Of a DNA stretch of 64,000 bases, positions 10,890 through 61,404 are shown one piece after another (positions within the stretch are counted from its first letter, which is position 1; every line of letters starts with the position of its first letter). The notes below the pieces were generated by a model that was not told the DNA's origin, searched no databases, and saw only the letters and a list, made by a program, of their open reading frames with translations. The DNA is from a virus, in IMG/VR virus record IMGVR_UViG_3300042520_001372. One strand, 5' to 3'. A program made the position numbers and the translations under genes.

Positions 10890-10970
10890 GTTTTGTTTTA
10901 GTTATAAATATAATCTAAAGATAAGAAAAAAGCCCCTGCAAAGCAAGGGCTCTTAAGTGTTTATTTTTAC
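10830..10970 (-). repeat. Cassette repeat: terminator, promoter, TATTTATA motif and leader-coding sequence
   Basis: Near-identical to about 11468-11602; similar to about 11810-11938. Confidence 0.9.
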
Positions 10971-10976
10971 TATACT

Positions 10977-11522: not shown

Positions 11523-11602
11523 GTTTTGTTTTAGTTATAAATATAATCTAAAGATAAGAAAAAAGCCCCTGCAAGGCAAGGGCTCTTCTGTGTTTATTTT
11601 TT
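11468..11602 (-). repeat. Cassette repeat copy
   Basis: Plus strand gttttgttttagttataaatataatctaaagataagaaaaaagcccctgcaa matches 10890-10941. Confidence 0.9.
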
Positions 11603-11610
11603 AGTTTTAT

Positions 11611-11874: not shown

Positions 11875-11909
11875 TTTTTTCTTTTGTTATAAATAGACTT
11901 AAAGAAACG

Positions 11910-11936
11910 AAAAAAGCCCCTGCAAAGCAAGGGCTC
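11910..11936 (-). terminator. Intrinsic terminator after recA-like gene (repeat copy)
   Basis: Minus strand AGCCCTTGC-ttt-GCAGGGGCT then T-tract. Confidence 0.8.
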
Positions 11937-11957
11937 TTCTTAAAAGTTTTTGGAATC

Positions 11958-26722: not shown

Positions 26723-26742
26723 GTTGTTTTATGTTTATCAGT

Positions 26743-26750
26743 TATAAATA
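26743..26750 (-). promoter_or_regulatory. Putative phage late promoter TATTTATA (representative copy)
   Basis: Same octamer upstream of genes at 2877, 7000, 10903, 11536, 11888, 22734, 25086, 26138, 26743, 28517, 32349, 33110, 33872, 48286, 57050, 57522, 58796 and 61391. Confidence 0.75.
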
Positions 26751-33480: not shown

Positions 33481-33858
33481 TTAGTTTGAGTAGATCCAGT
33501 TAGATGAAGATATGCCAAACATTACAGGTACATTTGCTTTGATGTACAATAAAGAGGCTTCTTGAATCTGACTATAAGACCCTGTGCTGGTTAAGGTTGA
33601 ACCGCTGAAGAAGGTATCCCATTCTACATCAGTAAGATTGTAGTTCATACCGTCAACTCTTTGTTGGTTAGAACCGCTGTAGTTCGCCCATACAACACCG
33701 TTAATGTTTACAGTGTGTTCGTTAGAACCACCACCAAAAGGGCCGTTGTTGCCGTTGTCTACGAAAGTAGCTTGTGGACAAGTGATCACCAAGTAAGATG
33801 ATTCTAGAGTCTGCGCGTTGTAAACTACCGATTTGCTTGAAGTTAATTTATGTGACAT
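33481..33858 (-). CDS. Hypothetical virion-associated protein
   Basis: TATTTATA motif upstream; three [ST]GS motifs. Confidence 0.55.
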   Translation of the reverse strand: MSHKLTSSKSVVYNAQTLESSYLVITCPQATFVDNGNNGPFGGGSNEHTVNINGVVWANYSGSNQQRVDGMNYNLTDVEWDTFFSGSTLTSTGSYSQIQEASLLYIKANVPVMFGISSSNWIYSN

Positions 33859-33907
33859 GTTTTTATTTTATTATAAATATGGTGTTTGATGCAAAAAAAA
33901 AGACTCA

Positions 33908-34342
33908 CTACTTTACCTTCCTCCATGTATACCAGGCTCTTTCATGTAGAAAATACAGAGTCATTTTAGTTAAAACTTCTAATGCTCCAATTTTTAAACC
34001 TGTTAAAGGGTTGCCAGTAACAATCCAGCCTAAAATCATGGTATCAATAGTACCAATTATCCTCCAGGAAATTGCCTTCATGATATGTCTTTTTAGGACT
34101 GATTTTTCTTTAATTGTTTTAATATAAGCAATACTGTTTCTAACCTCACAATGACCCTCACAAGTAACATGCCATTTATAGTCCTGAATTTCTTCCATCC
34201 AGTCTTTGGTAGTGTAGGTAGAACCGTCAATGATGATATTTGCTACTAATGTTTCATTACCATTTTCAATTAGTCTCCACCTTTCGGTATCGTCTTTAGA
34301 TACTGTGTTGTATCTTATTTGATATACTTTTGAAGTACTCAT
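33908..34342 (-). CDS. Protein with C-terminal DUF2061-like membrane domain
   Basis: KAISWRIIGTIDT...KMTLYFLHERAW. Confidence 0.75.
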   Translation of the reverse strand: MSTSKVYQIRYNTVSKDDTERWRLIENGNETLVANIIIDGSTYTTKDWMEEIQDYKWHVTCEGHCEVRNSIAYIKTIKEKSVLKRHIMKAISWRIIGTIDTMILGWIVTGNPLTGLKIGALEVLTKMTLYFLHERAWYTWRKVK

Positions 34343-34734
34343 AATTTTCCCTCCTGTCTCATCTGTTCACGGACCTTAGTTGCTGAGATGTCAGCGATTT
34401 CTGTCGGTGGAATATGCTCAATTATATCGTAACCAACCCCTCTACCGAATTCGATAGAGCAGATATCAGGGATAATCATCACTGTAACCCGAGGTTCGTC
34501 TTTATAGAAAGTCGTAATATTTTCTAGAACCTGCTGGGCTGAAAATGGATTCTTTTCGTCAGGTTGAATATCCCTGATGCATATTAGAACGTTCTTTTCT
34601 TCGTCCATTGCTTTCTGAAATAGAGCTTGGTGGCCGGGGTGTAAGGGCTGCCATCTTCCAACAAACATTGCATGTTGGCCTGGTTTTGCCGGTAGTGATG
34701 ATCCTACGTGTAATTTTTTAGTCCAGTTTGTCAT
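34339..34734 (-). CDS. HxGH-family nucleotidyltransferase (candidate minimal ATP sulfurylase)
   Basis: FVGRWQPLHPGH, KNPFS, ISATKVR. Confidence 0.75.
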   Translation of the reverse strand: MTNWTKKLHVGSSLPAKPGQHAMFVGRWQPLHPGHQALFQKAMDEEKNVLICIRDIQPDEKNPFSAQQVLENITTFYKDEPRVTVMIIPDICSIEFGRGVGYDIIEHIPPTEIADISATKVREQMRQEGKL

Positions 34735-34735
34735 A

Positions 34736-35077
34736 TTAGTTAAATCCTTGATCTCTTATTAAATTTACTGCTATTGCTCTTTCGCCCTCTTTCTCAGGGT
34801 CCATATCGTTAATTAAATACCTAGGCCCTCTTTCAAGTCCCATTATTACTCTGTCGTAAGGTACTAAATTGGATTTTAATTCCTTTAGAGTGTGTACGAG
34901 AAGATTATCCGGTCTTGCAGTCGTTAGTATAATCATATGTCCTTCCTCATGTTGTTTCTGGAGGTAATCAATAGTTGATAGTATAGGTTCTGCTTCTGAG
35001 GTTTTATATGTCTCAAATTTACGGTATTTAAAAATAGTACCATCGATATCGCAGAATATTGTATTCTTCTTTTCCAA
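34736..35077 (-). CDS. Capless HAD-family phosphatase
   Basis: CDIDGT, LTTAR, YLIND; TTG start. Confidence 0.75.
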   Translation of the reverse strand: MEKKNTIFCDIDGTIFKYRKFETYKTSEAEPILSTIDYLQKQHEEGHMIILTTARPDNLLVHTLKELKSNLVPYDRVIMGLERGPRYLINDMDPEKEGERAIAVNLIRDQGFN

Positions 35078-35078
35078 G

Positions 35079-35513
35079 TTATAATTGCTCTCTTACTAAT
35101 TTAACTGTATCTTCAATTGATAGAGTGTCAGTATTAATATAAGTATAATCTTCGTCTTCTGCAAGCTCAAAGTCAGCAACGTGAAAGTTTTCTCTTCCTC
35201 TTGGATTATCGTAACTTAAACAAAAGAATTTAGCTTCCGGCATCAAGGATCTTAAATAATCCCTAACTTCTAAGTATGGAAATACCATCGAGTAAATTAC
35301 GTTAGTTTTTATCTCCGTTGAGGTTAAATAATAGCCAATATCGCAGGCCTTAGATAAGTTCTTTATTCTACCTTCTTTTGAATAATCAGTATTCTTAAAT
35401 ACTGCCCGGAATCTATCTCCGTCGATTAATTCGGTGTTAGGTAAATCCTTAATCAACTCTTGGGCGATAGTTGTTTTACCAGAGTGCGGTTGTCCAAATA
35501 ATACTATAATCAT
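35079..35513 (-). CDS. cysC: Adenylyl-sulfate (APS) kinase-like protein
   Basis: GQPHSGKTT, IDGDRFR, DYSKEGRIKN, VFPY..VR. Confidence 0.75.
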   Translation of the reverse strand: MIIVLFGQPHSGKTTIAQELIKDLPNTELIDGDRFRAVFKNTDYSKEGRIKNLSKACDIGYYLTSTEIKTNVIYSMVFPYLEVRDYLRSLMPEAKFFCLSYDNPRGRENFHVADFELAEDEDYTYINTDTLSIEDTVKLVREQL

Positions 35514-36505
35514 TTTATTACTTTATCTAATTCGTTAGCATCAAACATTTCATTAACGTCTGCATAAGGACACTCATGTAGTGGACCATCAAAAGAATAA
35601 TCAAATAAATAAGCATCAATTAACTTAGTATTTCCTTTAGGAGGCATTGCTTTGATATTTGTATGCATATCATACCCGAAATTCTCAGGTGAAGTTCCAA
35701 TCCAGAATACTGTTGAAGGTAGTTCTAGGGCAGCTGCTGCATGCTGTAAACAAGAGTCAATTAAGAATCGTTTCTCTGAAGCTGCTACTAAACTGAATAA
35801 TTCCATGTTAGTCATTTGCTGGCTTACTACCTCCACTCCTTCAAGTTGGTAGCTACCCTCTCTTGTTAACTGAATGATATGATAGTCATTCTTAAATTTA
35901 TTAACAATGTATAAAGCAAGGTCGACAGGCATATCTCTAGTCCAAGTGTAATTCAAGGGTTGTCCTTGATACATTCCTCCATTAGTCTGTATTAGTAGGA
36001 CAGGCTTTTGTCTTTGCCACAACCCAGATAACTGTTTCTGCACCATATTAAAATGCAGGTTAGGTAGTTGTTTCTTATAATCAACCCCTAATAATTCGGC
36101 CCAGTTCTGTACTAGATGCTTTTGCTTTAAAATATGACCTGTTTGAAAGTAAGGTTCGTGTCTAAATACTAGAGTATCTTTACCTAAAATAAAATCTTCG
36201 TAAAAATAAGCGGTCATACCTACTCTATAAACCCTATGAACTTCAGGGTGGTTTAAAAATACTTCCGGATAGGAAGCAACTACAACTATTTTTCTGGTCT
36301 TGTATTGCTTAGCAAGAGCAGGTAGGAGAGCAGTTGCTGCTACATTCTTACCTAATCCGCCTTCGATGTGCCAAACTAAAAACTTATTATCCATGTTATT
36401 ATCTTTTTGCTGTGCTATTGAAACTAAGGTGGGTGACATTGTAATGTCGGGAACTACAATTGATTTAAATTCACTCTCGCTCTGTACTTTAAATCCTACT
36501 TTCAT
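35510..36505 (-). CDS. GT9-like (heptosyltransferase-fold) glycosyltransferase
   Basis: EGGLGKNVAATA; FLIDSCLQHAAAALELPSTVFW.GTSP..FGY. Confidence 0.75.
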   Translation of the reverse strand: MKVGFKVQSESEFKSIVVPDITMSPTLVSIAQQKDNNMDNKFLVWHIEGGLGKNVAATALLPALAKQYKTRKIVVVASYPEVFLNHPEVHRVYRVGMTAYFYEDFILGKDTLVFRHEPYFQTGHILKQKHLVQNWAELLGVDYKKQLPNLHFNMVQKQLSGLWQRQKPVLLIQTNGGMYQGQPLNYTWTRDMPVDLALYIVNKFKNDYHIIQLTREGSYQLEGVEVVSQQMTNMELFSLVAASEKRFLIDSCLQHAAAALELPSTVFWIGTSPENFGYDMHTNIKAMPPKGNTKLIDAYLFDYSFDGPLHECPYADVNEMFDANELDKVIK

Positions 36506-37326
36506 TAGATCTTATAATCAAAATCGTTAAAGAACCAGGAGTAACTTTCCTCAATTAGCTTACAGGCGTTAGGACCTAATACCTCTCTGAAGTCTTCTTT
36601 GAATGGTTTTAATTCCTGACGGATAATATGGTCTCCGAAAATACCGTACCATTTATCGTCCTCGTGAGTAACTTGTTTGATATTGTTGAAATCGTGCTGG
36701 TAGAAGGGTATTTCTAAATACTCGTAGATGCGTTTTAGTTGTGTATCAGGATCGGCACACAATTCTTCGAATTTAACAAATAAAATATTTTTATGAAGAC
36801 CCTGCACTAATACTTGATAAACCCTATCCATCGAAGGACCGATGGGTGGATTTACAGACCATACACTAACTCTTTTATCGGTAGTAGTGCCTGTCAAATT
36901 ACCCCAGTTAGCAAGATGGTGATCCTGTAATGGATTCTTTCTGAATTTCTTCTCTAAAGAAGCGTATACTGATCTAATATCCCTGATCATACATATCATT
37001 TTAGGGTTAGGATCGAAAGCATTTACGAATTCCCACTCCGAGTTCCATCCTCGGCATTTATCGATAACGTAAGGCTTGTCAGTTAGGTTTTCATAAAACC
37101 CATAAAGTCCTCCTTTTAGGTAAGACTTAAAACCGGTCATCATTTGAGATTCATCCTGGGCTTTGAATTCTAGACTATCTGTAAAAATAGTTCTTGAAGC
37201 TGCAAGCATCTCAAATAAACCTGACGTAGGAGTTGTGTACAGATCTGGATTTTGTCCTAGAATGTTTTGGATTAGAGTAGAACCAGCTCTTGGCATGGAA
37301 CTGTTATAAAAAACTTTTTTTATCAT
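36505..37326 (-). CDS. PAPS-dependent sulfotransferase
   Basis: 5'-PSB loop SMPRAGSTL; IDKCR; 3'-PB IRDIRSVYAS; KFEELCADP...IYEYL. Confidence 0.88.
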   Translation of the reverse strand: MIKKVFYNSSMPRAGSTLIQNILGQNPDLYTTPTSGLFEMLAASRTIFTDSLEFKAQDESQMMTGFKSYLKGGLYGFYENLTDKPYVIDKCRGWNSEWEFVNAFDPNPKMICMIRDIRSVYASLEKKFRKNPLQDHHLANWGNLTGTTTDKRVSVWSVNPPIGPSMDRVYQVLVQGLHKNILFVKFEELCADPDTQLKRIYEYLEIPFYQHDFNNIKQVTHEDDKWYGIFGDHIIRQELKPFKEDFREVLGPNACKLIEESYSWFFNDFDYKI

Positions 37327-37355
37327 AAACTTTAACTTAAAATAACCGATTTATA

Positions 37356-37973
37356 CTAATAAATATATATGTTTTTAAACAAAAGATCCATCTGGAAGAT
37401 TTGATTGTTTGGTAATTTTGCGTAGTGTAGAATATCCTCAATACAGAATCCATACTCCTTCATTACAGGTACTATGCTATCGATTAGCGGGGCTTTTTCG
37501 TTATATTGAGTTAAGGATACTTCCATGAGTACGTAATGGCTTCGCATGATTGTTTTTCTTCCTCCCTGTAGTATATCTAATTCAGATCCTTGAACATCAA
37601 GTTTTACTAAATCAATCACTTCGTCAGAAAAATACGAACGATTATCTAGAGTATCAAGCTCAACTTCAACTTTTTCAAATTTTCCGTCAGCATACCATTC
37701 TGTATTTTCTCTATATAAAGAAGCACCGGTTCCTAGAGCATTTGCTTTTTCTACAAAAAGTTCTGCCGTACCGGTTTTATTAGAGAGAGCTAGTATTTCG
37801 TACCCCCTGTTTAATTTTTGAAGGTAGGGTTCACAATTCTTATTTGCTTCCACCATTATAATCTCACATTCAGGTGCTCTTCTAATTATATCAGAAGTGA
37901 AGTCTCCGACGTGAGCTCCAATGTCAACAATCCTTCTAGGATTGATGTAGTTTAGTAGTTTGATATAGTCCAT
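37356..37973 (-). CDS. FkbM-family SAM methyltransferase
   Basis: IVDIGAHVG, VEAN, TLD, VKLDVQGSELDILQG, QMDLLF. Confidence 0.88.
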   Translation of the reverse strand: MDYIKLLNYINPRRIVDIGAHVGDFTSDIIRRAPECEIIMVEANKNCEPYLQKLNRGYEILALSNKTGTAELFVEKANALGTGASLYRENTEWYADGKFEKVEVELDTLDNRSYFSDEVIDLVKLDVQGSELDILQGGRKTIMRSHYVLMEVSLTQYNEKAPLIDSIVPVMKEYGFCIEDILHYAKLPNNQIFQMDLLFKNIYIY

Positions 37974-38871
37974 CTAAATATTTTATCCATTCAGTTATTC
38001 TGTAATCCCAGCTCCATTTTTTACCGTAGATGTTAATCTGATCAGTTAAATGCTCCTGTAGTTTATTCTCTCTAATTAGTTCGATTTCTTGATCTAGTAT
38101 TTTTGCAAATGCTTCTGCATGTAAATCCAAGTTGGGTAAATAGGAATACATTCTCGCCCATCCTTCGGTTGTCTCAGGTAGAGCACCAAGGGCTGATGTG
38201 ATTACTCTAAGACCAGCTGAAAGTGCTTCTACCACTGCGATACACGAGGTTTCCTCGAAGGTACTGGGGTATGCTAGAATATCAAACTGAGGTAATTCGT
38301 CTCTTAGTTTTTCGTTAGCGATTGAACCTCTATAGACTACTCCTGGAAGGGTTTTACACTTATTATAAAGATGCTCGTACTGAGAATCAGATTCACCGAA
38401 TTCCTTACCGTAGATTTTACAGCTTGAGAATACGTGGAGTTCAGCATTTTCCGGCTTTAGTATTTCCCATGCTTTTAATAATACTTCCAATCCACGCCAG
38501 GGAGTTGAGGTGTAGCATAGTTTTATTTTTTTTCGCTCTCCATGCTCTCTTGGTTTTACTCCTAAAGATGCATTTTTAAAAACGTGAGTTTTGTATCCGG
38601 GTATATTATAGAGCTGTCTAAACTTCTCTGCCTGCCAGTGACTAACGAATACAAATTGATCGATTTTATTGATCCAATCCGGTTCTTTAAGAAACTGAAC
38701 TGCGTCTTGATCATAAGATAGTTGATTCCAGTAGATGGTCGGTTTATTAAAATCGGCGTAGGGTAAGTAATTAAATATTGAAAATTCTTCCTGGTAATTC
38801 ATAGGAAGTCTTCTCATTAATTCATCAAACATTAATTCCGTCCCACCTTTCGGTTTATCAAACGTATCCAT
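37936..38871 (-). CDS. GT4-family glycosyltransferase
   Basis: PKGGTEL, FVFVSHWQ, YTSTPWRGL, YPSTFEETSCIAVVEALSAG. Confidence 0.88.
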   Translation of the reverse strand: MDTFDKPKGGTELMFDELMRRLPMNYQEEFSIFNYLPYADFNKPTIYWNQLSYDQDAVQFLKEPDWINKIDQFVFVSHWQAEKFRQLYNIPGYKTHVFKNASLGVKPREHGERKKIKLCYTSTPWRGLEVLLKAWEILKPENAELHVFSSCKIYGKEFGESDSQYEHLYNKCKTLPGVVYRGSIANEKLRDELPQFDILAYPSTFEETSCIAVVEALSAGLRVITSALGALPETTEGWARMYSYLPNLDLHAEAFAKILDQEIELIRENKLQEHLTDQINIYGKKWSWDYRITEWIKYLDGLYQTTKLHQS

Positions 38872-39514
38872 TCTTTGCTATAAACTTTTTAAAGTCTCCT
38901 TTAAATTTTTTAATGCCAATGTGATTGCAGGTAATTGTAGGATCTAACCATACTTTATATCCTAATGCTTTCCATTTATTACATAACACGTAATCTTCTG
39001 AGATTAGGTCTCCGTTCTCAACTTTAATATCGAATACCATTCGGTGCTTTTCTCCTTCGGAAGTATATTCATCGCTTATCTCCCAAAGTTTATCAAAAGC
39101 AAACTTAGAAACTTTCATAAACCCTGTTCCTACTCCGTCTACTTCTAGTAATTTTTTATCCTCAGAGCGTTTAAGTTTCTTGTCTAGAAGTTTTACTGTG
39201 TATCCTTCTTTCTCAGTCTTTTTAATCAAAGCACCGCCAACAATCGGTTCGGGTCTTTCTAGTAAATTAAAAAACCATTCTGGTTCCCATTCAGTATCTG
39301 AATCTATGAAGAATAAATCGTCATACTGTCCATCAATAGCTAGTTTGATCAAGCTGTTTCTTGCTCTTTGAACTAAGGAATCATAACTTGTATAGATGGC
39401 ATGTACAAAAATACCCTTTTTTTCAGCTATTTTAACAGTCTCTATTAAACTGTTTGCAAACCAAACATCAATTCTTCCATCGTAAGAAGGGGTTCCGATT
39501 AAAACTCTACGCAT
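38858..39514 (-). CDS. GT-A fold (GT2-like) glycosyltransferase
   Basis: IGTPSY, RARN, FFIDSD, VGTGFM, SEDY..C, H.G. Confidence 0.8.
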   Translation of the reverse strand: MRRVLIGTPSYDGRIDVWFANSLIETVKIAEKKGIFVHAIYTSYDSLVQRARNSLIKLAIDGQYDDLFFIDSDTEWEPEWFFNLLERPEPIVGGALIKKTEKEGYTVKLLDKKLKRSEDKKLLEVDGVGTGFMKVSKFAFDKLWEISDEYTSEGEKHRMVFDIKVENGDLISEDYVLCNKWKALGYKVWLDPTITCNHIGIKKFKGDFKKFIAKNGYV

Positions 39515-39518
39515 GATG

Positions 39519-39549
39519 TTAATATAATGAATTTATTTTAAAAAACCAA
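39519..39549 (-). promoter_or_regulatory. Bacteroidota-type -33/-7 promoter driving the modification operon
   Basis: TTG-N20-TATATTAA, 4 nt upstream of ATG; same layout as 9055-9085. Confidence 0.65.
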
Positions 39550-39556
39550 ATTATCC

Positions 39557-40237
39557 TTAATTGACTGTTACATCAAAATATAAACCTGTAAGTCCTAAAT
39601 AAGATGCTACATCTGCTGTTCCAAATGTGGTTGAAGTAAATGTAGTTCCACCTGAACCAGCTGCTACTCCTTGTCCTGCGAAGAAAACAATTCCATTTAT
39701 AGATAAATTTGCAGTACCTCCGGCAAATGAAGGAAAAGCTCCAGAAACTGTTACTTTCCAATAACCCCTAAATATAATAGGATCATTTGTTTGACTTACA
39801 GCACTAGGTCCATAAGTACCAGGGGCCATAGCCATACCACCACCATTTAAATATTGATATGAAAATGAAGAATCCCATAACTCAACATTCACGTTAACAG
39901 CATTATCTACTGGTGGAGGTGGAAACGGTGGTGGGTTTGTTTTATTATTTGTTACATTTAAAGTTACCTGAAACGTAGAATTATCGTAAAAATAAGTTAA
40001 TCCGTCAAAATCACCTACAGCAATATTTGTAGTTTTAGCTGATGTTCCATAAATTCTGTTTGCTCCTGATACTTCGCCTTGACCCCAGTTATTGTCTGGT
40101 ACGGAGTTTGAACCATTTGGACCAGCAAAATATGAAAAGAAGCTCATACTGTTTAAAGTAAGCAAACCAGAACTATAAGCCCCATTTGCCTCACTCCAAA
40201 TATCACTAAATTTTACGTTTGTGGTAGGTACGGTCAT
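39557..40237 (-). CDS. Fibre-tip / adhesin-like accessory protein
   Basis: Coupled to the S74-bearing fibre gene; Gly/aromatic rich; PPPFPPPP linker. Confidence 0.55.
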   Translation of the reverse strand: MTVPTTNVKFSDIWSEANGAYSSGLLTLNSMSFFSYFAGPNGSNSVPDNNWGQGEVSGANRIYGTSAKTTNIAVGDFDGLTYFYDNSTFQVTLNVTNNKTNPPPFPPPPVDNAVNVNVELWDSSFSYQYLNGGGMAMAPGTYGPSAVSQTNDPIIFRGYWKVTVSGAFPSFAGGTANLSINGIVFFAGQGVAAGSGGTTFTSTTFGTADVASYLGLTGLYFDVTVN

Positions 40238-43200
40238 TATTTACTTTTTAGTTCTTGTAGTTCTTTATCTAGTTCTTTAATTGCCTCAATCAATAGAGCT
40301 ACTAAGTTAGGATAAGCAACGTTTAAGGTACCGTCTGGGTTTTTAGTAATTACTTCAGGTAATACTTTTTGTATTTCTTGGGCTATAACACCTGCTCGTC
40401 TAGTAGTATCTTCAGAATCAGAACGAACATAAGTGTATCCGTTAATTTCTTTAACTTTTTCTAAAGCATTTTCTATAACTTGTAATTCTGTTTTAACAGA
40501 TTCATCTGAGAAAGCAGCTATATCATTAGTAGCATAAATTGAAATACCTCCTGATGAACCAGATACATGTAGAGGATATATAGGGGCTGTAAATCCGGGT
40601 CCTACACCTACAAATCCTGTTGAACCGGTAACAAACATTCTTATGTTACCTGCTCCGTCTGATATAAAGATGTTTTTATTCTCTGCAGCAAATCCTGTGG
40701 CTGTGGCTGAACCTAGGATTACGTTACAAGCTCCTGAAGTAATACATATACCTGCATTAAGGCCGATAGCTGTATTATTAGAGGCTGTGTTATTTCTTAA
40801 AGCACACCTGCCTACTGCGGTATTATTAATTCCTGTAACATTATAATCTAATGCTAAAGATCCTAAAGCCGTATTATCACATCCTGTTGTATTAGATCTT
40901 AAAGCATTAACACCTAAAGCTGTATTATTTGTACCACCGTTATTGGCCTGTAAAGCAATATATCCAACGGCTGTATTGTTTGAGGAAGATGTGTTAGCAC
41001 ATAAAGCACTAGTACCAATAGCTACGTTTCTAACAGCAAAGGTATTGTTTACTAAAGCATTATTACCTACAGCTACGTTATTTGTACCTGTTGTATTATT
41101 TCTTAAAGCATAAAAACCTACGGCTGTGTTGCTACTTGCTGTATTAAAACGTAATGCAAGAAAACCTAATGCCGTGTTATTATTACCTGTTGTATTAGCG
41201 ACTAATGAAGCATATCCTAAACTTGAATTACCTGTTCCTGTTGTATTACATCTTAATGCATTGAAGCCTACTGCTGTATTGTTTGAGGCTGTGTTGGCGA
41301 ATAAAGAATAGAAACCTAATGAAGTGTTATTTGAACCTCCACCACTACATCTTTGTGAATCATATCCTACAGCTACGTTATAATTTCCTGTTATGTTACC
41401 GTAAAGTGCCGTTCTACCTAATCCAACATTTTTTGTACCTGAGGTATTATTTCTCATTGCTAAGAAACCTACTGCTGTATTGTTTGAGGCTGTGTTAGAA
41501 TAAAGAGCTGATGTACCTAATGCTATGTTATTTTCTCCTGATATGTTTAATCTAAGTGCTCCAACTCCTACAGCTGTATTGTTTCCTCCTGTTGTATTTA
41601 GACATAATGCTCTTACTCCAAAAGCTGTATTTCCATTAGCTGTTGTATTACTAGCTAAAGCTCTATAGCCAAAAGCTGAATTATTTACACCTGTTGTGTT
41701 TGAAAGTAATGCGAAGTTACCAACAGATGTGTTTTGTTCACCTGATGTGTTTGCTAGTAATGAACAAATACCAACCGATGTATTGTTGGTTCCTGTTGTA
41801 TTACTTCTTAATGCACAGAAACCAACTGCTGTGTTGTTTGAGGCTGTGTTACAGCGAAGAGCTTCAGCACCTAAAGCTGTGTTATTACAGGAAGTTGAGT
41901 TTGTACATAAAGCAAGATTTCCTACTGCTGTATTATTGTTTCCTTGTCCTCCAAGGAGAGCTACTGAACCAACAGCAGTATTTCCTGTTCCTGTTATATT
42001 AAATCCTAAAGTAAAATTACCAACTGCTGTGTTACTAGCCCCAGTTGTATTATCTCTTAATGCTATTCTGCCTATAGCAACATTATATCCTCCAGTAGTA
42101 TTACTTGATAAGGCACACTGTCCTAAAGCTGTATTATAACACCCTGTTGTATTGTTTTGTAAGGCACTATTACCAACTGCTGTATTATTTGATGCTGTAT
42201 TACCAAATAAAGCATTTGTACCTATACCAACATTGTTGTTACCTCCAGAATTACTAAATAAAGCATCTCTACCAATGGCTACGTTATTTGAACCATTTAT
42301 ATTGCATATTAAAGCATTTGTATTTATTCCTATGTTATTTGTACCGGTAGTATTACTAAGTAAAGCAAATCTACCAAAAGCAGCATTATCACTGCTTAAA
42401 TTACTTGTTAAAGCATTATATCCAACAGCTGTATTTCTAACACCTGTTATATTAGTTGATAAAGCACAGAAACCTACCGCTGTATTACTTGCTCCTGTTG
42501 TATTATTTCTTAAGGCACAGAAGCCTACTGCTGTATTGTTTGAAGCTGTGTTTGAGCGTAAAGAATAATGACCTACAGCAGTATTAGAAGCACCTACAGT
42601 ATTACAGTACATTGAATCTCTACCAACTGATACGTTATTATTACCCGTAGTATTGTTTTTTAAAGCTTGGACACCAACACCTACGTTACTACCACCTAGT
42701 GTATTATTTCTTAAAGACTCAAGACCTAAAGCGGTGTTTGAACTTCCTGTGGTAGTGTAACGTAAAGCAGCAAAACCAACGGCAGTATTGTAGTTGGAGT
42801 TGATAGAACATCCTGCGTACCTACCTAGAGCTGTATTGAATCTACCTGTTGTACCTAAACGTAAAGCTTCTCTACCAACTGCCGTGTTGTTATCTCCTGT
42901 AGTATTGGCACAAAGAGCATAAAATCCAACAGCTGTGTTAGCTCCTCCTGTTGTATTATTTCTTAGAGCACTAAAGCCTACTGCTGTGTTGTTTGAGGCT
43001 GTGTTATATCCTAATGATGAACGGCCTATAGCTGTGTTATTGTTTCCGACAATATTTGAATATAGTGCACCTTGTCCTAAGGATACATTCGCACATCCTG
43101 TAGTATTGTTGGCAGATGATTTAGAACCTACAGAGGTATTATATCTCCCGGTAGTATTTAATCTCATTGAACAAAGTCCTAGTGAAGTATTTTCAGTTCC

Positions 43201-46200
43201 TGTTGTATTACATCTTAATGCATTGAAGCCTACGGCTGTATTGTTTGAGGCTGTGTTTTTATAAAGAGCTACATGTCCTATAGCAACGTTATTTATACCT
43301 ACAGTATTACAGAATAAAGCCGCTGGACCAACAGCAACGTTTTGAATACCTGTAGTGTTTAACCCTAAAGAAAAAGGGCCTACAGCTATATTATCCGTAC
43401 CAATTGTATTAGCACTTAATGCACTTCTACCTAAAGCAGTATTATAACTACCCGCCGTATTATTTCTTAATGTACAGAAACCGATTGCTGTATTGTTTGA
43501 TGCTGTGTTTTGACGAAGTGTTTGTTCACCAATAGCTACGTTATTAGAACCAGCATTATTAGTATATAAAGCTGAAACTCCTATCGCAACATTGTAATTA
43601 CCTGAAGTATTAAATTCAAGTGCGCTATTACCCATACCAATATTTCGAATACCTATAGTATTTCTAAAAAGTGAAAAAGCACCTACACTAATATTAAGAG
43701 CACCTACGGTATTGGATTGTAAAGCACTTCTACCCACTGCTGTGTTGTATCCTCCGGTAGTGTTTGCTTGTAGAGCTAAAACACCTAAAGCTGTGTTTTG
43801 TGTTCCTGTTGTATTACTTCTTAATGCGCAGAAACCTACTGCTGTATTGTTTGATGCTGTGTTAGAAAATAAACTATAAAAACCTAATGCAGTATTGTTA
43901 GCACCGGAAACATTTGAATACATAGATGCTCTACCAAAAGCTGAATTGTATCCACCTGTGGTGTTATTAAATAGAGTATTATCACCAAAGGCACTATTTC
44001 GTGAACCTACTGTATTTTTAGCTAGTGTAGCAAAACCTATAGAAGTATTCTGTATACCTGTTGTGTTATCTCTTAATGATTGATTACCTACTGAAGTATT
44101 AGCAGTTCCTGTTGTATTAGCTCTTAAGGCACAAAATCCTAGTGCTGTATTATTAGTTCCTGTTGTATTATTACATAAAGCATTAAAACCTACAGCTGTA
44201 TTACCTGATACTGTATTATATCTTAAAGCATCTATACCTACAGCAGTATTAGAAGTACCTACAGTATTACTTAATAAAGAAGCCCAACCAACAGAAGTGT
44301 TACTATTTCCTGTTGTATTTACATCGAGAGCATAACTGCCAATTGCTGTATTTCTAAGACCAATTGTATTAGATTTTAGTGCTCTATATCCTAATGCGGT
44401 ATTATCTATACCTGTTGTGTTTGATGTTAATGCTATATGTCCTACACCTACATTTCGAGTTCCTGTTGTATTATATCTTAAAGCACTAGTACCTACTGCT
44501 GTATTGTTTGAGGCTTTATTGTCGCGAAGGGTAAAATGACCTACTGCTACATTATTTTCTCCAATTATGTTGCAATACAGTGCTGATTGACCTACAGCTA
44601 CATTTCGTGCTCCAGTTGTATTATAGACAAGAGCATTAACACCTATAGCAACTAAAGACGTTCCAATTGTATTAGAAGCAGCAGCAGCATATCCTATAGC
44701 TATATTACTTGTTGCATTTGTATTACATCTTAGAGCATTAAAACCAATTGCTGTGTTGTAACTACCTACTATATTAGCCCTTAAAGCACAACTACCAATA
44801 GCTACATTTTTAGTTCCTGTTGTGTTAGTTCTTAATGCACAATAACCTACTGCTGTGTTGTTTGATGCTGAATTGCAGAATAAAGCACAAAAACCGACAC
44901 CAACGTTATTACTACCACCATAGGTTAAAACACCTGTTCCAATTGCAACGTTACGATCAGCATTTGCAAATACTAATGCTCTATAACCAAGAGCTACGTT
45001 ATTAACACCGCTAATATTAGAGTACATTGCGTTATGTCCAAAAGCAACATTATTGGCACCTGAAGTGTTACATCTTATTGTATTTACACCAATACCTACG
45101 TTTCGTGTACCCACAGTATTGGCTAATAGTGATAAAGTACCAACTGCTACGTTATATGTTCCTGTCGTATTATTTCTTAATGCACAGAAACCAACTGCTG
45201 TGTTGTTTGATGCTGTATTGTTAAATAAAGTTCTATATCCAATACCTACGTTGTTTAATCCAGCACCATTATATACTAATGCTTGGTGACCAATAGCTAC
45301 GTTTTTATTACCTGAAGAGTTGTACTGTAAAGCACCGTGTCCTACTGCTATGTTACAATCACCTACTGTACTATTTTGTAATGCTTGTGAACCAACAGCA
45401 ACGTTTAAGGCTCCTGTTGTATTGCTCAATAATGCACAATTACCGACAGCTGTATTATTTGAAGATGTTGTATTACTTCTTAATGCACAAATACCAACTG
45501 CTGTGTTATTAGTGCCTACAGTATTTAACGCTAAAGAACAATATCCAATAGATGTATTATTAACCCCTGTAGTATTTAATATTGAGGCCTTATATCCTAA
45601 AGCGGTGTTTCTTGTTCCTGTTGTATTTTGGTGTAGAGCACAAGCTCCGAGTGCGGTATTTCGTGAAGCGGTATTGTTTACAAGTGCTTGAAATCCTATA
45701 CCTGTATTATATTGACCTACTGTGTTTGCGTTAAGAGCAGACACACCAACTGCTACGTTAAATGTTCCTGTTGTATTACTTCTTAATGCATATGTTCCTA
45801 AAGCAGTGTTTTCTCCACCTGTTGTATTATATCTTAATGAAAAATATCCTACTGCTGTGTTGTTTGAAGCGGTATTAACCGCAAGTGAACTTCTACCAAC
45901 AGCTGTATTGAAACTACCTACAGTATTTGTACTTAGAGCTGATGTTCCAACAGCGGTATTACCAACACCAGTAGTATTAGATTGTAAAGTATTAGCTCCT
46001 AAAGCTGTATTTAATAAACCTGTTGTATTATTTTGTAATGCTGTTCTTCCTAAAGCGGTATTATAACTACCCGCTGTATTACTTCTTAATGCACAAAAAC
46101 CTACTGCTGTGTTGTTTGATGCTGTGTTGCAGAGTAAAGCATCTCTACCTACAGCTACATTATTACTTCCTACAACATTTCCATATAAAGTCTGATATCC

Positions 46201-48249
46201 TATAGCAATATTATCTACACCTGTAGTATTATTACGAAGAGCGGCAACACCAAATCCAGAATTTCGTGTTCCAACTGTATTTGAACATAATGAAAATACA
46301 CCTACAGATGTATTAAATGTACCTACTGTGTTATTTACTAAAGAACATGTTCCTACAGCGACATTCTGAATACCTGTTGTATTACTTCGTAATGCACAGA
46401 AACCTACTGCTGTGTTGTTTGATGCTGTGTTTTCTCGTAAAGCTTGAAATCCAACTGAGGTATTATTTGAAGCGGTGGTTTTGTAGAGAGATAGGTATCC
46501 TACAGCAACGTTATTGCTTCCTACTAAGTTATTGCCTAAAGCATTTGTACCGACGGCAGTATTAAATGTTCCTGTGGTATTACTTATTAAAGCAGCATAC
46601 CCAAAAGCATCGTTGTTTGCTCCGGTTGTATTGTCTTTTAATGCTAAATCTCCTACAGCCGTGTTTCTAAAACCAGATGTATTTGCTCGTAAAGAACAAA
46701 ATCCTACTGCTGTATTTTTATCACCTACTGTATTAGTTGCTAATGCACAAAAACCTACTGCTGTAGTTCTTGTACCAGTAGTATTATTTCTTAATGCACA
46801 GAAACCAACTGCTGTGTTGTTTGATGCTGTATTTAATTGTAGGGCACAAGTACCAACTGCGGTATTGTTTGAAGCTGTATTACAAAGTAAAGCGTAAAGA
46901 CCTACAGCAACGTTTTGAGCACCTACTATGTTAGCATACAAAGCTGCTCTACCTAAAGCTGTATTTAATGTACCTGTAGTATTGCTTCTTAAAGCAATAT
47001 CACCTAAAGCTGTATTATTAACTCCTGTTGTATTAGCGGCTAAAGCTGTAGCACCTACTGCTGTATTTTGTTGACCAGTTGTATTAGCACATAAAGCGTT
47101 AATACCTACAGCTGTATTAAGAGTACCAATTGTATTACATGCTAAAGCACTTCTACCAATAGCTGTGTTATTTCCTCCTGTTGTATTATTTCTTAAAGCA
47201 TATGTTCCTAAAGCAGTGTTTTCTCCACCTGTAGTATTACATCTTAGAGCTGAGAATCCAACTGCAACATTATTAGAAACTGCATTGACATATAAAGCTA
47301 AATGGCCTACACCTACGTTATTGTTAGCATTACCTACATTTCTTAAAGCACTTCCTCCTAAAGCAACGTTATTGCTACCTGCTAAGACATTTCTTAATGC
47401 AGTTCTACCCATTGCTACGTTATACGTTCCTGAGGTTAGGGTATATGCTGCATGGAAACCAACTGCAGTATTGTAACTGCCTACACTATTATAGTTAAAC
47501 ACCCTATTACCAACTGCTACGTTTTGGGTACCTGTTGTATTACTACATAATGCACATGAACCGACTGCTGTATTATTTGATGCTGTATTTGAACGTAAAG
47601 CACTATCACCAATTGCAACATTACTAGAAGCACCTGTACTATTATAAGCTGCATAATAACCTACAGCTACGTTTGAACCACCTGTTATATTAAATCTTAA
47701 AGCTGTTCTGCCTACGGCTGTATTTCTAGTACCTACTGTATTATTTAGTAAAGCTGTTCTACCTACTGCTGTATTACTAGTTCCTGTTGTGTTACTTTCT
47801 AAAGCACTTCTTCCTATAGCTGTATTTGAAACACCAATAGTATTTGCTGCTAAAGCACTACAGCCAACTGCTGTGTTGTCTATTCCTGTTGTATTATTTA
47901 ATAAAGCATTACACCCTACTCTAGTGTTACTAGCAATACTTCCTCCACCTAAACCAACACTGACACTATTTACTAAAATATCACAGCTTGCAACTTCAAA
48001 TTTTGCTGAAGGTGATGATGTATTAATACCAACATTTCCTCCTGAATAGTAGATATTACCTGCCGAACCGGTCCAGACAGAATCACCTGCATTGAGGGCA
48101 TAGGAGGCCGTAGCTGCATACGATGCAGAGACTGCATTACTGATTGATCCTGAAAAAGACCCTGTAAAAGATTGTGCTGTCACTCCTCCCGATACGCGGG
48201 TAGATCCGGAGACAATAAGACCATTTTTAATTACAAATTCATTAGCCAT
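40237..48249 (-). CDS. Giant repeat tail fibre with C-terminal intramolecular chaperone (peptidase S74)
   Basis: Roughly 140 units of 16/17 aa (NTAVGxxALxxNTTG); C-terminal FSDESVK...RAGVIAQEIQKVLPE...LLIEAIKEL. Confidence 0.85.
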   Translation of the reverse strand: MANEFVIKNGLIVSGSTRVSGGVTAQSFTGSFSGSISNAVSASYAATASYALNAGDSVWTGSAGNIYYSGGNVGINTSSPSAKFEVASCDILVNSVSVGLGGGSIASNTRVGCNALLNNTTGIDNTAVGCSALAANTIGVSNTAIGRSALESNTTGTSNTAVGRTALLNNTVGTRNTAVGRTALRFNITGGSNVAVGYYAAYNSTGASSNVAIGDSALRSNTASNNTAVGSCALCSNTTGTQNVAVGNRVFNYNSVGSYNTAVGFHAAYTLTSGTYNVAMGRTALRNVLAGSNNVALGGSALRNVGNANNNVGVGHLALYVNAVSNNVAVGFSALRCNTTGGENTALGTYALRNNTTGGNNTAIGRSALACNTIGTLNTAVGINALCANTTGQQNTAVGATALAANTTGVNNTALGDIALRSNTTGTLNTALGRAALYANIVGAQNVAVGLYALLCNTASNNTAVGTCALQLNTASNNTAVGFCALRNNTTGTRTTAVGFCALATNTVGDKNTAVGFCSLRANTSGFRNTAVGDLALKDNTTGANNDAFGYAALISNTTGTFNTAVGTNALGNNLVGSNNVAVGYLSLYKTTASNNTSVGFQALRENTASNNTAVGFCALRSNTTGIQNVAVGTCSLVNNTVGTFNTSVGVFSLCSNTVGTRNSGFGVAALRNNTTGVDNIAIGYQTLYGNVVGSNNVAVGRDALLCNTASNNTAVGFCALRSNTAGSYNTALGRTALQNNTTGLLNTALGANTLQSNTTGVGNTAVGTSALSTNTVGSFNTAVGRSSLAVNTASNNTAVGYFSLRYNTTGGENTALGTYALRSNTTGTFNVAVGVSALNANTVGQYNTGIGFQALVNNTASRNTALGACALHQNTTGTRNTALGYKASILNTTGVNNTSIGYCSLALNTVGTNNTAVGICALRSNTTSSNNTAVGNCALLSNTTGALNVAVGSQALQNSTVGDCNIAVGHGALQYNSSGNKNVAIGHQALVYNGAGLNNVGIGYRTLFNNTASNNTAVGFCALRNNTTGTYNVAVGTLSLLANTVGTRNVGIGVNTIRCNTSGANNVAFGHNAMYSNISGVNNVALGYRALVFANADRNVAIGTGVLTYGGSNNVGVGFCALFCNSASNNTAVGYCALRTNTTGTKNVAIGSCALRANIVGSYNTAIGFNALRCNTNATSNIAIGYAAAASNTIGTSLVAIGVNALVYNTTGARNVAVGQSALYCNIIGENNVAVGHFTLRDNKASNNTAVGTSALRYNTTGTRNVGVGHIALTSNTTGIDNTALGYRALKSNTIGLRNTAIGSYALDVNTTGNSNTSVGWASLLSNTVGTSNTAVGIDALRYNTVSGNTAVGFNALCNNTTGTNNTALGFCALRANTTGTANTSVGNQSLRDNTTGIQNTSIGFATLAKNTVGSRNSAFGDNTLFNNTTGGYNSAFGRASMYSNVSGANNTALGFYSLFSNTASNNTAVGFCALRSNTTGTQNTALGVLALQANTTGGYNTAVGRSALQSNTVGALNISVGAFSLFRNTIGIRNIGMGNSALEFNTSGNYNVAIGVSALYTNNAGSNNVAIGEQTLRQNTASNNTAIGFCTLRNNTAGSYNTALGRSALSANTIGTDNIAVGPFSLGLNTTGIQNVAVGPAALFCNTVGINNVAIGHVALYKNTASNNTAVGFNALRCNTTGTENTSLGLCSMRLNTTGRYNTSVGSKSSANNTTGCANVSLGQGALYSNIVGNNNTAIGRSSLGYNTASNNTAVGFSALRNNTTGGANTAVGFYALCANTTGDNNTAVGREALRLGTTGRFNTALGRYAGCSINSNYNTAVGFAALRYTTTGSSNTALGLESLRNNTLGGSNVGVGVQALKNNTTGNNNVSVGRDSMYCNTVGASNTAVGHYSLRSNTASNNTAVGFCALRNNTTGASNTAVGFCALSTNITGVRNTAVGYNALTSNLSSDNAAFGRFALLSNTTGTNNIGINTNALICNINGSNNVAIGRDALFSNSGGNNNVGIGTNALFGNTASNNTAVGNSALQNNTTGCYNTALGQCALSSNTTGGYNVAIGRIALRDNTTGASNTAVGNFTLGFNITGTGNTAVGSVALLGGQGNNNTAVGNLALCTNSTSCNNTALGAEALRCNTASNNTAVGFCALRSNTTGTNNTSVGICSLLANTSGEQNTSVGNFALLSNTTGVNNSAFGYRALASNTTANGNTAFGVRALCLNTTGGNNTAVGVGALRLNISGENNIALGTSALYSNTASNNTAVGFLAMRNNTSGTKNVGLGRTALYGNITGNYNVAVGYDSQRCSGGGSNNTSLGFYSLFANTASNNTAVGFNALRCNTTGTGNSSLGYASLVANTTGNNNTALGFLALRFNTASSNTAVGFYALRNNTTGTNNVAVGNNALVNNTFAVRNVAIGTSALCANTSSSNNTAVGYIALQANNGGTNNTALGVNALRSNTTGCDNTALGSLALDYNVTGINNTAVGRCALRNNTASNNTAIGLNAGICITSGACNVILGSATATGFAAENKNIFISDGAGNIRMFVTGSTGFVGVGPGFTAPIYPLHVSGSSGGISIYATNDIAAFSDESVKTELQVIENALEKVKEINGYTYVRSDSEDTTRRAGVIAQEIQKVLPEVITKNPDGTLNVAYPNLVALLIEAIKELDKELQELKSK

Positions 48250-48294
48250 AAGTATACCCGTTCACTGTCCGGGGCAGGTGTTTGTTATAAATAG

Positions 48295-61377: not shown

Positions 61378-61404
61378 AAATGTATTTACTTATAAATAGA
61401 AAGT

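Follow-up and report, generated by a model that had tools for sequence, protein, structure and literature searches.

Putative genes for sulfate activation and sugar transfer beside the giant fiber genes of an uncultured myovirus: a cassette that may decorate phage fibers

Nine genes at positions 33,908 to 39,549 of the viral DNA record IMGVR_UViG_3300042520_001372 (IMG/VR; 64,000 nucleotides, the whole of which is referred to as the window) raise the question of what a phage would modify with its own enzymes for sugar, methyl, and sulfate transfer, and from where these enzymes would obtain activated sulfate. An initial annotation made from the sequence had proposed a self-contained cytoplasmic pathway with its own supply of 3'-phosphoadenosine 5'-phosphosulfate (PAPS), which builds a sulfated, O-methylated glycan, most plausibly on virion proteins. 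Leaving the acceptor aside, this interpretation turned out to be largely right. It appears an even matter to us whether the genes form a late-expressed cassette which combines its own PAPS supply with sugar transfer and decorates the giant fibers of the phage in the cytoplasm before assembly. No publications on this cassette were found in the literature searched.

Relatives of the cassette were collected as 80 IMG/VR loci by a peptide-pattern scan with its kinase (43-98% identity), and their genes were assigned by tblastn and clustering. The kinase gene is present in all 80 loci, followed by the genes for an HxGH nucleotidyltransferase (73 loci), a sulfotransferase and a DUF2061 protein (72 each), and a GT9-like glycosyltransferase (69). 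These five genes are the conserved core of the cassette, shared by about 70 of the 80 loci at 36-66% identity, whereas the genes for a HAD phosphatase (14 loci), a GT4 glycosyltransferase and an FkbM methyltransferase (11 each), and a GT-A-like glycosyltransferase (10) are accessory; the unit that is conserved thus comprises five genes rather than the nine of the initial proposal. The recurrent order in the relatives is a fiber gene (coding for 500-2500 amino acids), a gene for about 110 amino acids, and then the genes for the GT9-like enzyme, sulfotransferase, kinase, nucleotidyltransferase, and DUF2061 protein, with the kinase-nucleotidyltransferase pair being adjacent in 73 of the 80 loci. 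The small gene after the fiber gene (clusters c6 and c10; L029:7914-8246, L040:7849-8199, and about 50 other loci) has no family match and almost always lies between the fiber and GT9-like genes in the relatives; no homologue of it is present in the window.

At least 4 kb of upstream sequence is available for 51 loci, and in 41 of these a fiber-cluster gene coding for at least 400 amino acids is located no more than 4 kb away from the GT9/sulfotransferase pair. Five of the ten exceptions carry homologues of the window fibers on the same contig, upstream of an inserted block of GT2, GT4, and FkbM genes. Fiber adjacency extends over 11 of the 15 kinase lineages (defined at 70% identity) and is kept in the inverted arrangement of L079-L084; linkage to fiber genes in relatives, on which the initial annotation had staked its proposal, is thus present. 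The side of the cassette facing away from the fiber is variable and shows a methyltransferase-GT4-GT9 fusion (cluster c9, 24 loci), a sheath gene, or others, including genes for GNAT, GT25, and fatty-acid hydroxylase proteins and protein-type modifiers such as arrays of 2-oxoglutarate (2OG)-Fe(II) oxygenases at the same spot. One lineage (L061, L062, L065, L067) carries insertions of this type inside the cassette, represented in L062 (2738-5261 and 6218-9136) by a tandem array of four 2OG-Fe(II) oxygenase genes and by three paralogues of a 316-amino-acid protein, likewise in tandem.

The two giant fiber genes of the window match PHROG tail spike, tail fiber, and virion structural families, and gene 1 contains many repeats. 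Homologues of gene 1 occur in nine related loci, 29 of the 73 fiber-cluster (c5) proteins adjoining the cassettes of the relatives match one of the two window fibers, and the fibers beside the cassette in the relatives bear YadA-head repeats or beta-roll matches. Both window fibers consist of 16% Asn and 13-15% Thr (gene 1: N 15.8%, T 14.7%) and contain NxS/T sequons in excess, namely 166 vs 107 in shuffled sequences for gene 1 and 154 vs 91 for gene 2, corresponding to 1.5-1.7 times the shuffled expectation over 40237-56976. N-glycosylation as a general explanation was dropped, because the fibers of ten other cassette-bearing loci show no sequon enrichment.

The nine genes were described initially as tightly packed behind a single host-type promoter. 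The packing is borne out, since all nine open reading frames (ORFs) are co-directional on the minus strand with intergenic gaps of -38 to +29 nucleotides, and the promoter is not: no sigma-70-like site with at least 9 of 12 matching positions is present in the 42-nucleotide gap before the first gene, the best manual match (TTGGTT-17-TATATT, 8/12) ends 6 nucleotides before its ATG, and sigma-70-like sites are not enriched in the region (22 found vs 25.9 expected). The phage has a motif of its own, TATTTATAW, which occurs in 20 copies in the window vs 6.05 expected, 19 of them on the coding strand, and almost always lies 10-30 nucleotides upstream of structural-gene starts (e.g., at 26742-26750, 61390-61398, and the two sites listed in Table 1). 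This promoter-like, phage-specific motif is the T4 late consensus TATAAATA spelled as its reverse complement. No copy is found between 48285 and 33879, and fiber gene 2, a gene for 226 amino acids, and the nine cassette genes form one motif-delimited unit of 14.4 kb. Because they share this unit, the cassette and fiber gene 2 are probably co-transcribed.

The GT9-like enzyme shows no Pfam match at E <= 0.01, no NCBIfam match at E <= 0.1, and no match to PDB sequences, either as a single query or as a 31-sequence profile. Its AlphaFold2 model (pLDDT 83, residues 1-36 disordered) is predicted to adopt clearly a GT9 fold, with VIA-align Z values of 20.2 for the GT9 enzyme 3tov, 18.4 for TibC, 18.1 for WaaC, and 17.8 for WaaF, compared to 9.8 or less for other GT-B folds, and with Foldseek E values of 9.3e-11 for 3tov and 3e-8 for TibC. 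The relatives of the enzyme comprise 288-299 amino acids; Met38 is probably the true start, because the first 36 residues of the window protein are disordered and absent from the relatives.

As to the sugar donor, five genes are inserted between those for the kinase and the nucleotidyltransferase in four relatives (L039, L050, L068, and L075), encoding a cupin isomerase-like protein, a HAD protein, a second cytidylyltransferase (PF01467, 2e-12), a PfkB kinase, and an NAD-dependent epimerase. The synthesis of ADP-L-glycero-D-manno-heptose takes five steps, catalyzed by GmhA, HldA, GmhB, HldC, and HldD, and the inserted genes apparently fit this pathway if the cupin protein serves as the isomerase replacing the GmhA-type SIS enzyme. 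Because of these modules, ADP-heptose is probably the donor of the GT9-like enzyme. The loci with the full module carry both sets of enzymes, including a separate PfkB kinase and the second cytidylyltransferase, so the heptose steps do not fall to the core kinase and nucleotidyltransferase, and a reading of kinase, HAD protein, and nucleotidyltransferase as an ADP-heptose pathway was rejected for this reason. The window itself holds the HAD gene without the other genes of the heptose module. Its product (PF08282 5.6e-6, HAD_PNKP 1.3e-4, phrog_1238 1.4e-13; DxDGT motif) matches no GmhB-specific model and is 37-47% identical to the homologues within the heptose-like modules; because these sit inside such modules, it is best read as catalyzing a GmhB-like step of ADP-heptose synthesis outside the PAPS supply. 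A role as 3'-phosphoadenosine 5'-phosphate 3'-phosphatase completing the PAPS cycle would agree with the PNKP-like matches and is ranked lower, since the heptose modules of the relatives favor GmhB. The pathway is thus not fully self-contained as had been proposed, because the sugar donors have to be supplied by the host here.

The sulfotransferase is placed well above the cut-offs of PF13469 (6.3e-16, 59.7 bits, cut-off 27) and PF00685 (1.1e-13, 51.6 bits, cut-off 22), and its PAPS-binding motifs are intact, with invariant P12, R13, G15, and S16 (PRAGST) in the 5'-phosphosulfate-binding and R115, D116, and S123 in the 3'-phosphate-binding segment. The best match of its family profile in the PDB is the tyrosylprotein sulfotransferase (TPST) TPST1 (1.4e-10), and Foldseek retrieves TPST2/TPST1 as best matches of its AlphaFold2 model (pLDDT 86.5) with a TM score of 0.67, compared to about 0.56 or lower for polyketide, heparan, and cytosolic sulfotransferases. 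Its nearest solved relatives are tyrosylprotein sulfotransferases, which we regard as a lead rather than as family membership, and tyrosine may receive the sulfate instead of a sugar.

The fibers of the phage itself appear as the likeliest acceptor, at slightly better than even chances, because the GT9 fold is shared with TibC, fiber adjacency is conserved, the cassette and a fiber gene share a late unit, and export machinery is missing. As the initial annotation had claimed, none of the nine proteins begins with a segment resembling a signal peptide, as judged by a crude hydropathy scan, and no exporter, flippase, or polymerase is annotated within the window. The only 19-residue stretch of the nine proteins above the hydropathy threshold lies in the interior of the GT4 enzyme (residues 210-228), and the only window ORF with at least two transmembrane-like segments is a gene for 775 amino acids at 22747-25074, which has no family match and is taken to be the tape measure gene.

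Some observations count against the fibers as acceptor. The case for them is made from adjacency, probable co-transcription, and analogy, and fiber regions are also hot spots of accessory-gene accumulation. Heptosyltransferases acting on proteins and those acting on lipopolysaccharide (LPS) are not distinguished by the GT9 fold, as evident from the Z values of TibC and WaaC, the enzyme matches no BAHT or GT9 sequence model of Pfam or NCBIfam, and its conserved N-terminal motif reads GGxGK, in a glycine-rich segment that presumably corresponds to the one carrying the catalytic Asp of WaaC. In the profile alignment of the sulfotransferase, the GEETR segment of the TPSTs, which we take to be the site of the catalytic Glu, aligns with TPTSG, without a Glu. 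Furthermore, tblastn with the sulfotransferase, kinase, and nucleotidyltransferase did not find the cassette in the cultured phages of the phage collection, which contain only distant homologues of the three proteins (25-38% identity).

The main alternative target is a glycan of the host envelope, such as the LPS inner core, the capsule, or an exopolysaccharide, to which the same enzymes would add heptose, methyl, and sulfate groups during infection; such remodeling could block superinfection or keep progeny off debris. GT9 enzymes are classically LPS-core heptosyltransferases, with WaaC and WaaF matching the model as well as TibC, the GT4, FkbM, and GT25 families are typical of polysaccharide pathways, the sole NCBIfam match of the sulfotransferase is the sugar sulfotransferase NoeE, and cellular pairs of kinase and nucleotidyltransferase genes adjoin genes for capsules or exopolysaccharides (Wzi, Wzz/GNVR, Sulfotransfer_5). 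We nevertheless regard this target as unlikely, as the nine proteins have no clear membrane anchor and the window offers no machinery to polymerize or export a glycan, the cassette remains tied to a fiber gene through rearrangements, the late unit shared with the fiber would come late for a change of the host surface in a lytic cycle, and the sulfotransferase is nearest to enzymes acting on protein tyrosines.

The second question, the source of the activated sulfate, leads to the kinase and the nucleotidyltransferase. The kinase matches PF01583 (1.5e-9, 38.5 bits vs a cut-off of 21.1), and a profile of 42 sequences retrieves 25 solved sequences of adenosine 5'-phosphosulfate (APS) kinases from the PDB (2.5e-15 to 4e-4), with a few other P-loop proteins interspersed from 8e-9 on by short N-terminal matches only. 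Invariant in the 42 sequences are the P-loop GxxGKT (G12, K13, T15), the DGD motif (D31, G32, D33), R36, R49, and N52; from HMMER alignments and by comparison with the Penicillium enzyme, we take the DGD motif, R36, R49, and N52 to be the Mg- and APS-binding residues. Judged from homology and these conserved residues, the enzyme looks like a PAPS-forming kinase. The nucleotidyltransferase matches PF01467 (4.8e-6) and carries the motifs GRWQPLHPGH, GRGVGYD, and ISATKVR; the generic cyt_tran_rel domain is its only NCBIfam match above cut-off, and its family comprises at least 8000 protein clusters at 90% identity.

When each prokaryotic species was represented by a single genome, scanning yielded 80 cellular loci, 79 of which contain the nucleotidyltransferase in a called ORF as recognized by the profile. 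They stem from Marinimicrobia, Omnitrophota, Planctomycetota, Acidobacteriota, Verrucomicrobiota, marine group III archaea, Pelagibacteraceae bins, and others. In 70 of the 79 loci, an APS-kinase(-like) domain is either fused to the nucleotidyltransferase or encoded next to it, a finding which together with the APS-kinase motifs of the phage kinase supports the own PAPS supply of the initial annotation. Thirty loci contain fusions (21 with the nucleotidyltransferase and nine with the kinase in front), and 40 further loci an APS-kinase(-like) gene on the same strand within 300 nucleotides. In two fusions examined fully, the kinase domains reach 200.8 and 159.2 bits and surpass the cut-off of 138.7 of TIGR00455, the adenylyl-sulfate kinase equivalog, while the nucleotidyltransferase part passes no curated family besides the generic domain. 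Several cellular loci have sulfotransferases, a second CysC, or capsule genes nearby, and three of five genomes examined (G002, G003, and G005; two Marinimicrobia and one Omnitrophota) contain the pair and neither a PF01747-type Sat nor CysD. In a marine group III archaeon (L132:5002-9663), the pair is flanked by genes for S-adenosylhomocysteine hydrolase, S-adenosylmethionine synthetase, and serine hydroxymethyltransferase, representing a methyl-cycle or sulfur-amino-acid context rather than one of glycan synthesis. APS is the only known substrate of APS kinase. Because of its independent fusions to APS kinase in both orders, the nucleotidyltransferase may well be the missing ATP sulfurylase, and we consider it likely from these sequence comparisons that the 131-residue protein represents a mini ATP sulfurylase and hence a new enzyme class, which would work like a Sat-type sulfurylase and is not a member of the Sat family.

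Several findings speak against this assignment. The kinase reaches only 36.1 bits with TIGR00455 (cut-off 138.7) in a match spanning residues 2-98, and with 144 amino acids it is shorter than the usual length of about 175-200, the C-terminal lid segment being absent from the alignments. The nucleotidyltransferase stays below the cut-off of the ATP sulfurylase model PF01747 (0.0021, 17.9 vs 24.3 bits) and lacks the motifs QxRNPxH and GRDHAG, which are signatures of Sat. In the PDB, its 32-sequence profile is nearest to NadM-type and archaeal nicotinamide mononucleotide adenylyltransferases (NMNATs; 3e-8), and no sulfurylases are among its matches at E <= 1. The genomes G002, G003, and G005 are of unknown completeness, which limits the absence of Sat and CysD, and four viral loci keep the kinase and the sulfotransferase without the nucleotidyltransferase. 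Finally, Xylella phage Bacata (L087, 29138-29878) and other cultured siphophages of the Salvovirus group encode a protein of 246 amino acids in which a distant homologue of the kinase is fused to a homologue of the nucleotidyltransferase (phrog_10255); its gene lies in an early region among genes of nucleotide metabolism, near MazG and COG3236, and no sulfotransferase is annotated in the 18-kb stretch around it.

Several of these points would be accommodated if the kinase and nucleotidyltransferase produced another 3'-phosphorylated nucleotide cofactor, an analogue of PAPS, or salvaged NAD as a combination of NMNAT and kinase, leaving the sulfotransferase to use PAPS or APS of the host. A precedent is phosphoramidate biosynthesis in Campylobacter, where a CysC homologue phosphorylates CDP-amidate. 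Such a function appears quite improbable to us nonetheless: the fusion partners in the cells are bona fide APS kinases by the NCBI equivalog cut-off and occur in both orders, the phage kinase retains the APS-binding residues without variation, sulfotransferases co-cluster in 72 of the 80 viral and in several cellular loci, no other sulfurylase is seen in the three genomes that contain the pair, and the nucleotidyltransferase remains far below every NMNAT cut-off (25.9 vs 181.2 bits for TIGR01527, 33 vs 127 bits for NF002243).

We know of no DNA substrates of enzymes with GT9 or TPST-like folds. Phage DNA or a small molecule as target, with sulfated or glycosylated bases or a secondary metabolite as product, is very improbable: phage glycosyltransferases do often act on DNA according to literature cited in PMC12619734, and the initial annotation had named DNA as an alternative substrate, but no base-hypermodification enzymes are seen among the annotated neighbors, and the cassette lies within the virion module, with conserved fiber adjacency, and not among replication genes.

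For fiber decoration, the following sequence of reactions may be envisaged. The HxGH enzyme of 131 amino acids would adenylylate sulfate with ATP to APS, which the short APS-kinase-like enzyme would convert to PAPS, as suggested by its homology and conserved substrate-binding residues. The GT9-fold enzyme would transfer a heptose-type sugar from an ADP-sugar to the repeat-rich fiber, in agreement with its fold, the adjacency of the genes, and the ADP-heptose modules of the relatives, and the TPST-like sulfotransferase, the family of which is clear, would attach sulfate either to that sugar or directly to fiber tyrosines. In the clade of this phage, the GT-A-like, GT4, and FkbM proteins would extend and O-methylate the glycan, and the lone HAD phosphatase would act as a GmhB-like helper in the supply of ADP-heptose.

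Table 1. Coordinates of the cassette genes, their virion neighbors, and the delimiting motif copies in the window.
Feature	Position	Strand	Remarks
Major head protein	61459-63105		phrog_138, 6.5e-69; upstream of both giant fibers
Giant fiber gene 1, 2893 amino acids	48295..56976	(-)	16/17-residue NTAxG repeats; candidate acceptor
TATTTATAA motif	48285-48293		precedes fiber gene 40237-48249
Giant fiber gene 2, 2670 amino acids	40237..48249	(-)	candidate acceptor; first gene of motif-delimited unit
226-amino-acid gene, between fiber gene 2 and cassette	39557..40237	(-)	
GT-A-like (GT2/Anp1-like) glycosyltransferase candidate	38858..39514	(-)	accessory
GT4 (GT-B) glycosyltransferase	37936..38871	(-)	accessory
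FkbM-family methyltransferase	37356..37973	(-)	accessory
PAPS-type sulfotransferase	36505..37326	(-)	core
GT9-fold, heptosyltransferase-like glycosyltransferase, 331 amino acids	35510..36505	(-)	core
Short APS-kinase-like P-loop kinase, 144 amino acids	35079..35513	(-)	core
Capless HAD phosphatase, 113 amino acids	34736..35077	(-)	accessory
HxGH nucleotidyltransferase, 131 amino acids	34339..34734	(-)	core; candidate minimal ATP sulfurylase
DUF2061 protein, 144 amino acids	33908..34342	(-)	core
Next TATTTATAA motif	33871..33879	(-)	marks start of following unit, gene 33481-33858

By analogy, the cassette would work like TibC/TibA or Aah/AIDA-I joined to a PAPS supply of the NodPQH or RaxPQ/ST type within a phage virion module. 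In the TibC/TibA and Aah/AIDA-I systems (PDB 4rap, 4rb4), a GT9-fold enzyme is likewise encoded beside a very long beta-structured repeat protein and works in the cytoplasm without a glycan exporter, and ADP-heptose is the likely donor here as well. Unlike TibC and Aah, which comprise about 400 amino acids, the phage enzyme has about 290 and matches neither the Pfam GT9 family nor an NCBIfam/BAHT model, and unlike TibC/TibA, the cassette is phage-encoded, coupled to sulfation, and has a virion fiber as candidate substrate. TibC itself is characterized by a cluster of iron-binding cysteines and by assembly into a dodecamer. Dedicated PAPS supplies next to a sulfotransferase are represented by NodP/NodQ/NodH of Rhizobium and RaxP/RaxQ/RaxST of Xanthomonas, which employ a CysD/CysN-type sulfurylase and a full-length CysC; RaxST is a homologue of tyrosine sulfotransferases. 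As in these systems, the sulfotransferase of the cassette would be provided with sulfate-activating enzymes of its own, allowing a specific product to be sulfated independently of assimilation, and as for RaxST, its nearest solved relatives are tyrosine sulfotransferases. In contrast to NodPQH and RaxPQ, the first step would fall to an NMNAT-like protein of 131 amino acids and the second to a lid-less kinase of 144, and a DUF2061 protein is added.

The fusion of sulfurylase and APS kinase known from human PAPSS1 (PDB 1x6v) and Sat-CysC of Aquifex aeolicus (PDB 2gks), the APS-kinase domains of which are matched by the phage kinase, is paralleled in its logic by the 30 cellular nucleotidyltransferase fusions. 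Unlike Sat, the nucleotidyltransferase has no N-terminal domain and contains GRWQPxHxGH and GRGVGYD in place of the Sat motifs. It has the Rossmann-like HxGH fold class and the motifs GRxQPxHxGH and ISxTxxR in common with the archaeal and NadM-type NMNATs (PDB 1f9a, 1ej2, 2qjo), from which it differs by its shorter length, its own GRGVGYD motif, and its genomic partner, which is APS kinase instead of NAD genes. To our knowledge, neither sulfation nor glycosylation of fibers by an own cassette has yet been shown for any phage. In mycobacteriophages, phage glycosyltransferases glycosylate the phage's own structural proteins at the C-termini of capsid and tail-tube proteins, and the cited account documents virion glycosylation for mycobacteriophages only (PMC10527164, cited in PMC12619734); sulfate, a PAPS supply, a GT9 enzyme, and a giant fiber set the present case apart.

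The families assigned initially were recovered for most of the nine proteins, namely GT4, FkbM, sulfotransferase, APS-kinase-like, HAD, HxGH, and DUF2061 by Pfam, PHROG, or NCBIfam and GT9 by its fold, whereas the GT-A assignment is a weak one: PF00535 remains below cut-off (17.6 vs 23.3 bits, E 0.0039), and the protein matches phrog_1574 (1.5e-27), carries a DSD (DxD) motif at FFIDSDTEW, and has Atlas neighbors with Glycos_transf_2 in 33% and Anp1 in 12% of the members. The GT4 enzyme matches PF13692 (2.6e-12), PF00534 (4.6e-11), and phrog_2170 (6.8e-33), and the FkbM protein matches PF05050 (4.4e-22) and, above cut-off, TIGR01444 (4.3e-19). In nine of its ten loci, the GT-A-like gene is accompanied by homologues of the giant fibers, and the extra block of GT-A-like, GT4, and FkbM genes travelling with NxT-rich giant fibers is particular to the cassette of this window. 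The c9 fusion of a class I methyltransferase, GT4, and GT9 domains (about 1139 amino acids; L040:10998-14417 and 23 other loci) usually follows the cassette directly, on the opposite strand, and may combine in one chain what the window encodes in separate glycosyltransferase and methyltransferase genes.

The DUF2061 protein matches PF09834 (1.5e-21) with a conserved domain at residues 87-137 behind a variable N-terminal extension, and its invariant residues are R85, H86, K89, R94, E122, K126, H133, E134, and R135. DUF2061 forms a hairpin of about 70 amino acids, which is marginally hydrophobic in the window (maximum Kyte-Doolittle value 1.36), and is called only a putative membrane protein in a published passage. 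It stays with the kinase and the sulfotransferase even at loci without the nucleotidyltransferase. Most relatives contain forms of 68-85 amino acids; the long form of the window is extended by an N-terminal domain of about 80 amino acids, found also in L008, L010, L018, and L025, and a 97%-identical relative (G001, C1:20029-20038; L003, L004, L086) lacks about 240 nucleotides at window positions 34094-34337 and encodes a DUF2061 protein of 78 amino acids only, compared to 144 in the window. An Atlas search with DUF2061 retrieved exclusively viral DUF2061 clusters and no fused forms, and a complex prediction of kinase, nucleotidyltransferase, and DUF2061 domain scored 0.00, which gives no verdict either way.

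The window is a single long run of minus-strand genes of a large uncultured myovirus, and a blastn comparison of the region with 50,697 phage records gave no matches. The flanks agree with the fiber and neck genes named initially: the giant fibers and the head gene lie upstream of the cassette, and downstream follow several small genes and those for the neck protein (sharing 45-49% identity with its counterparts in Microcystis phage Mel-JY01 and Flavobacterium phage immuto), the tail sheath (phrog_23, 1.7e-67), and the tail tube. The 226-amino-acid gene in front of the cassette has no Pfam, PHROG, or NCBIfam match and no homologue among the 80 related loci. Elsewhere in the window, three near-identical intergenic cassettes (10890-10976, 11523-11610, and 11875-11957) each precede one of three consecutive small genes and consist of a GC-rich, terminator-like hairpin, AGAGCCCTTGC..GCAGGGGCTTTTTT, followed by TATTTATAAC.

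Taken jointly, a third, minimal type of ATP sulfurylase in phages and uncultured microbes and the heptosylation and sulfation of adhesin-like fibers by phages themselves form a combination which is possible, although we would put it at clearly less than even chances. If the nucleotidyltransferase activates sulfate, current annotation misses a route to APS and PAPS in abundant aquatic microbes (Marinimicrobia, Omnitrophota, marine archaea, and Pelagibacteraceae bins) and in phages, and genomes that now count as incapable of sulfate activation may be capable of it after all. If the fibers are the acceptor, host recognition in lakes and oceans would involve a coat of methylated, negatively charged glycan of the phage's own making, with effects on adsorption, host range, protease resistance, and polysaccharide capture. 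A virion sulfated in this way would be the first of its kind and would parallel the glycosylation of bacterial adhesins, and its study would extend virion glycosylation beyond the mycobacteriophages to a very large uncultured group.

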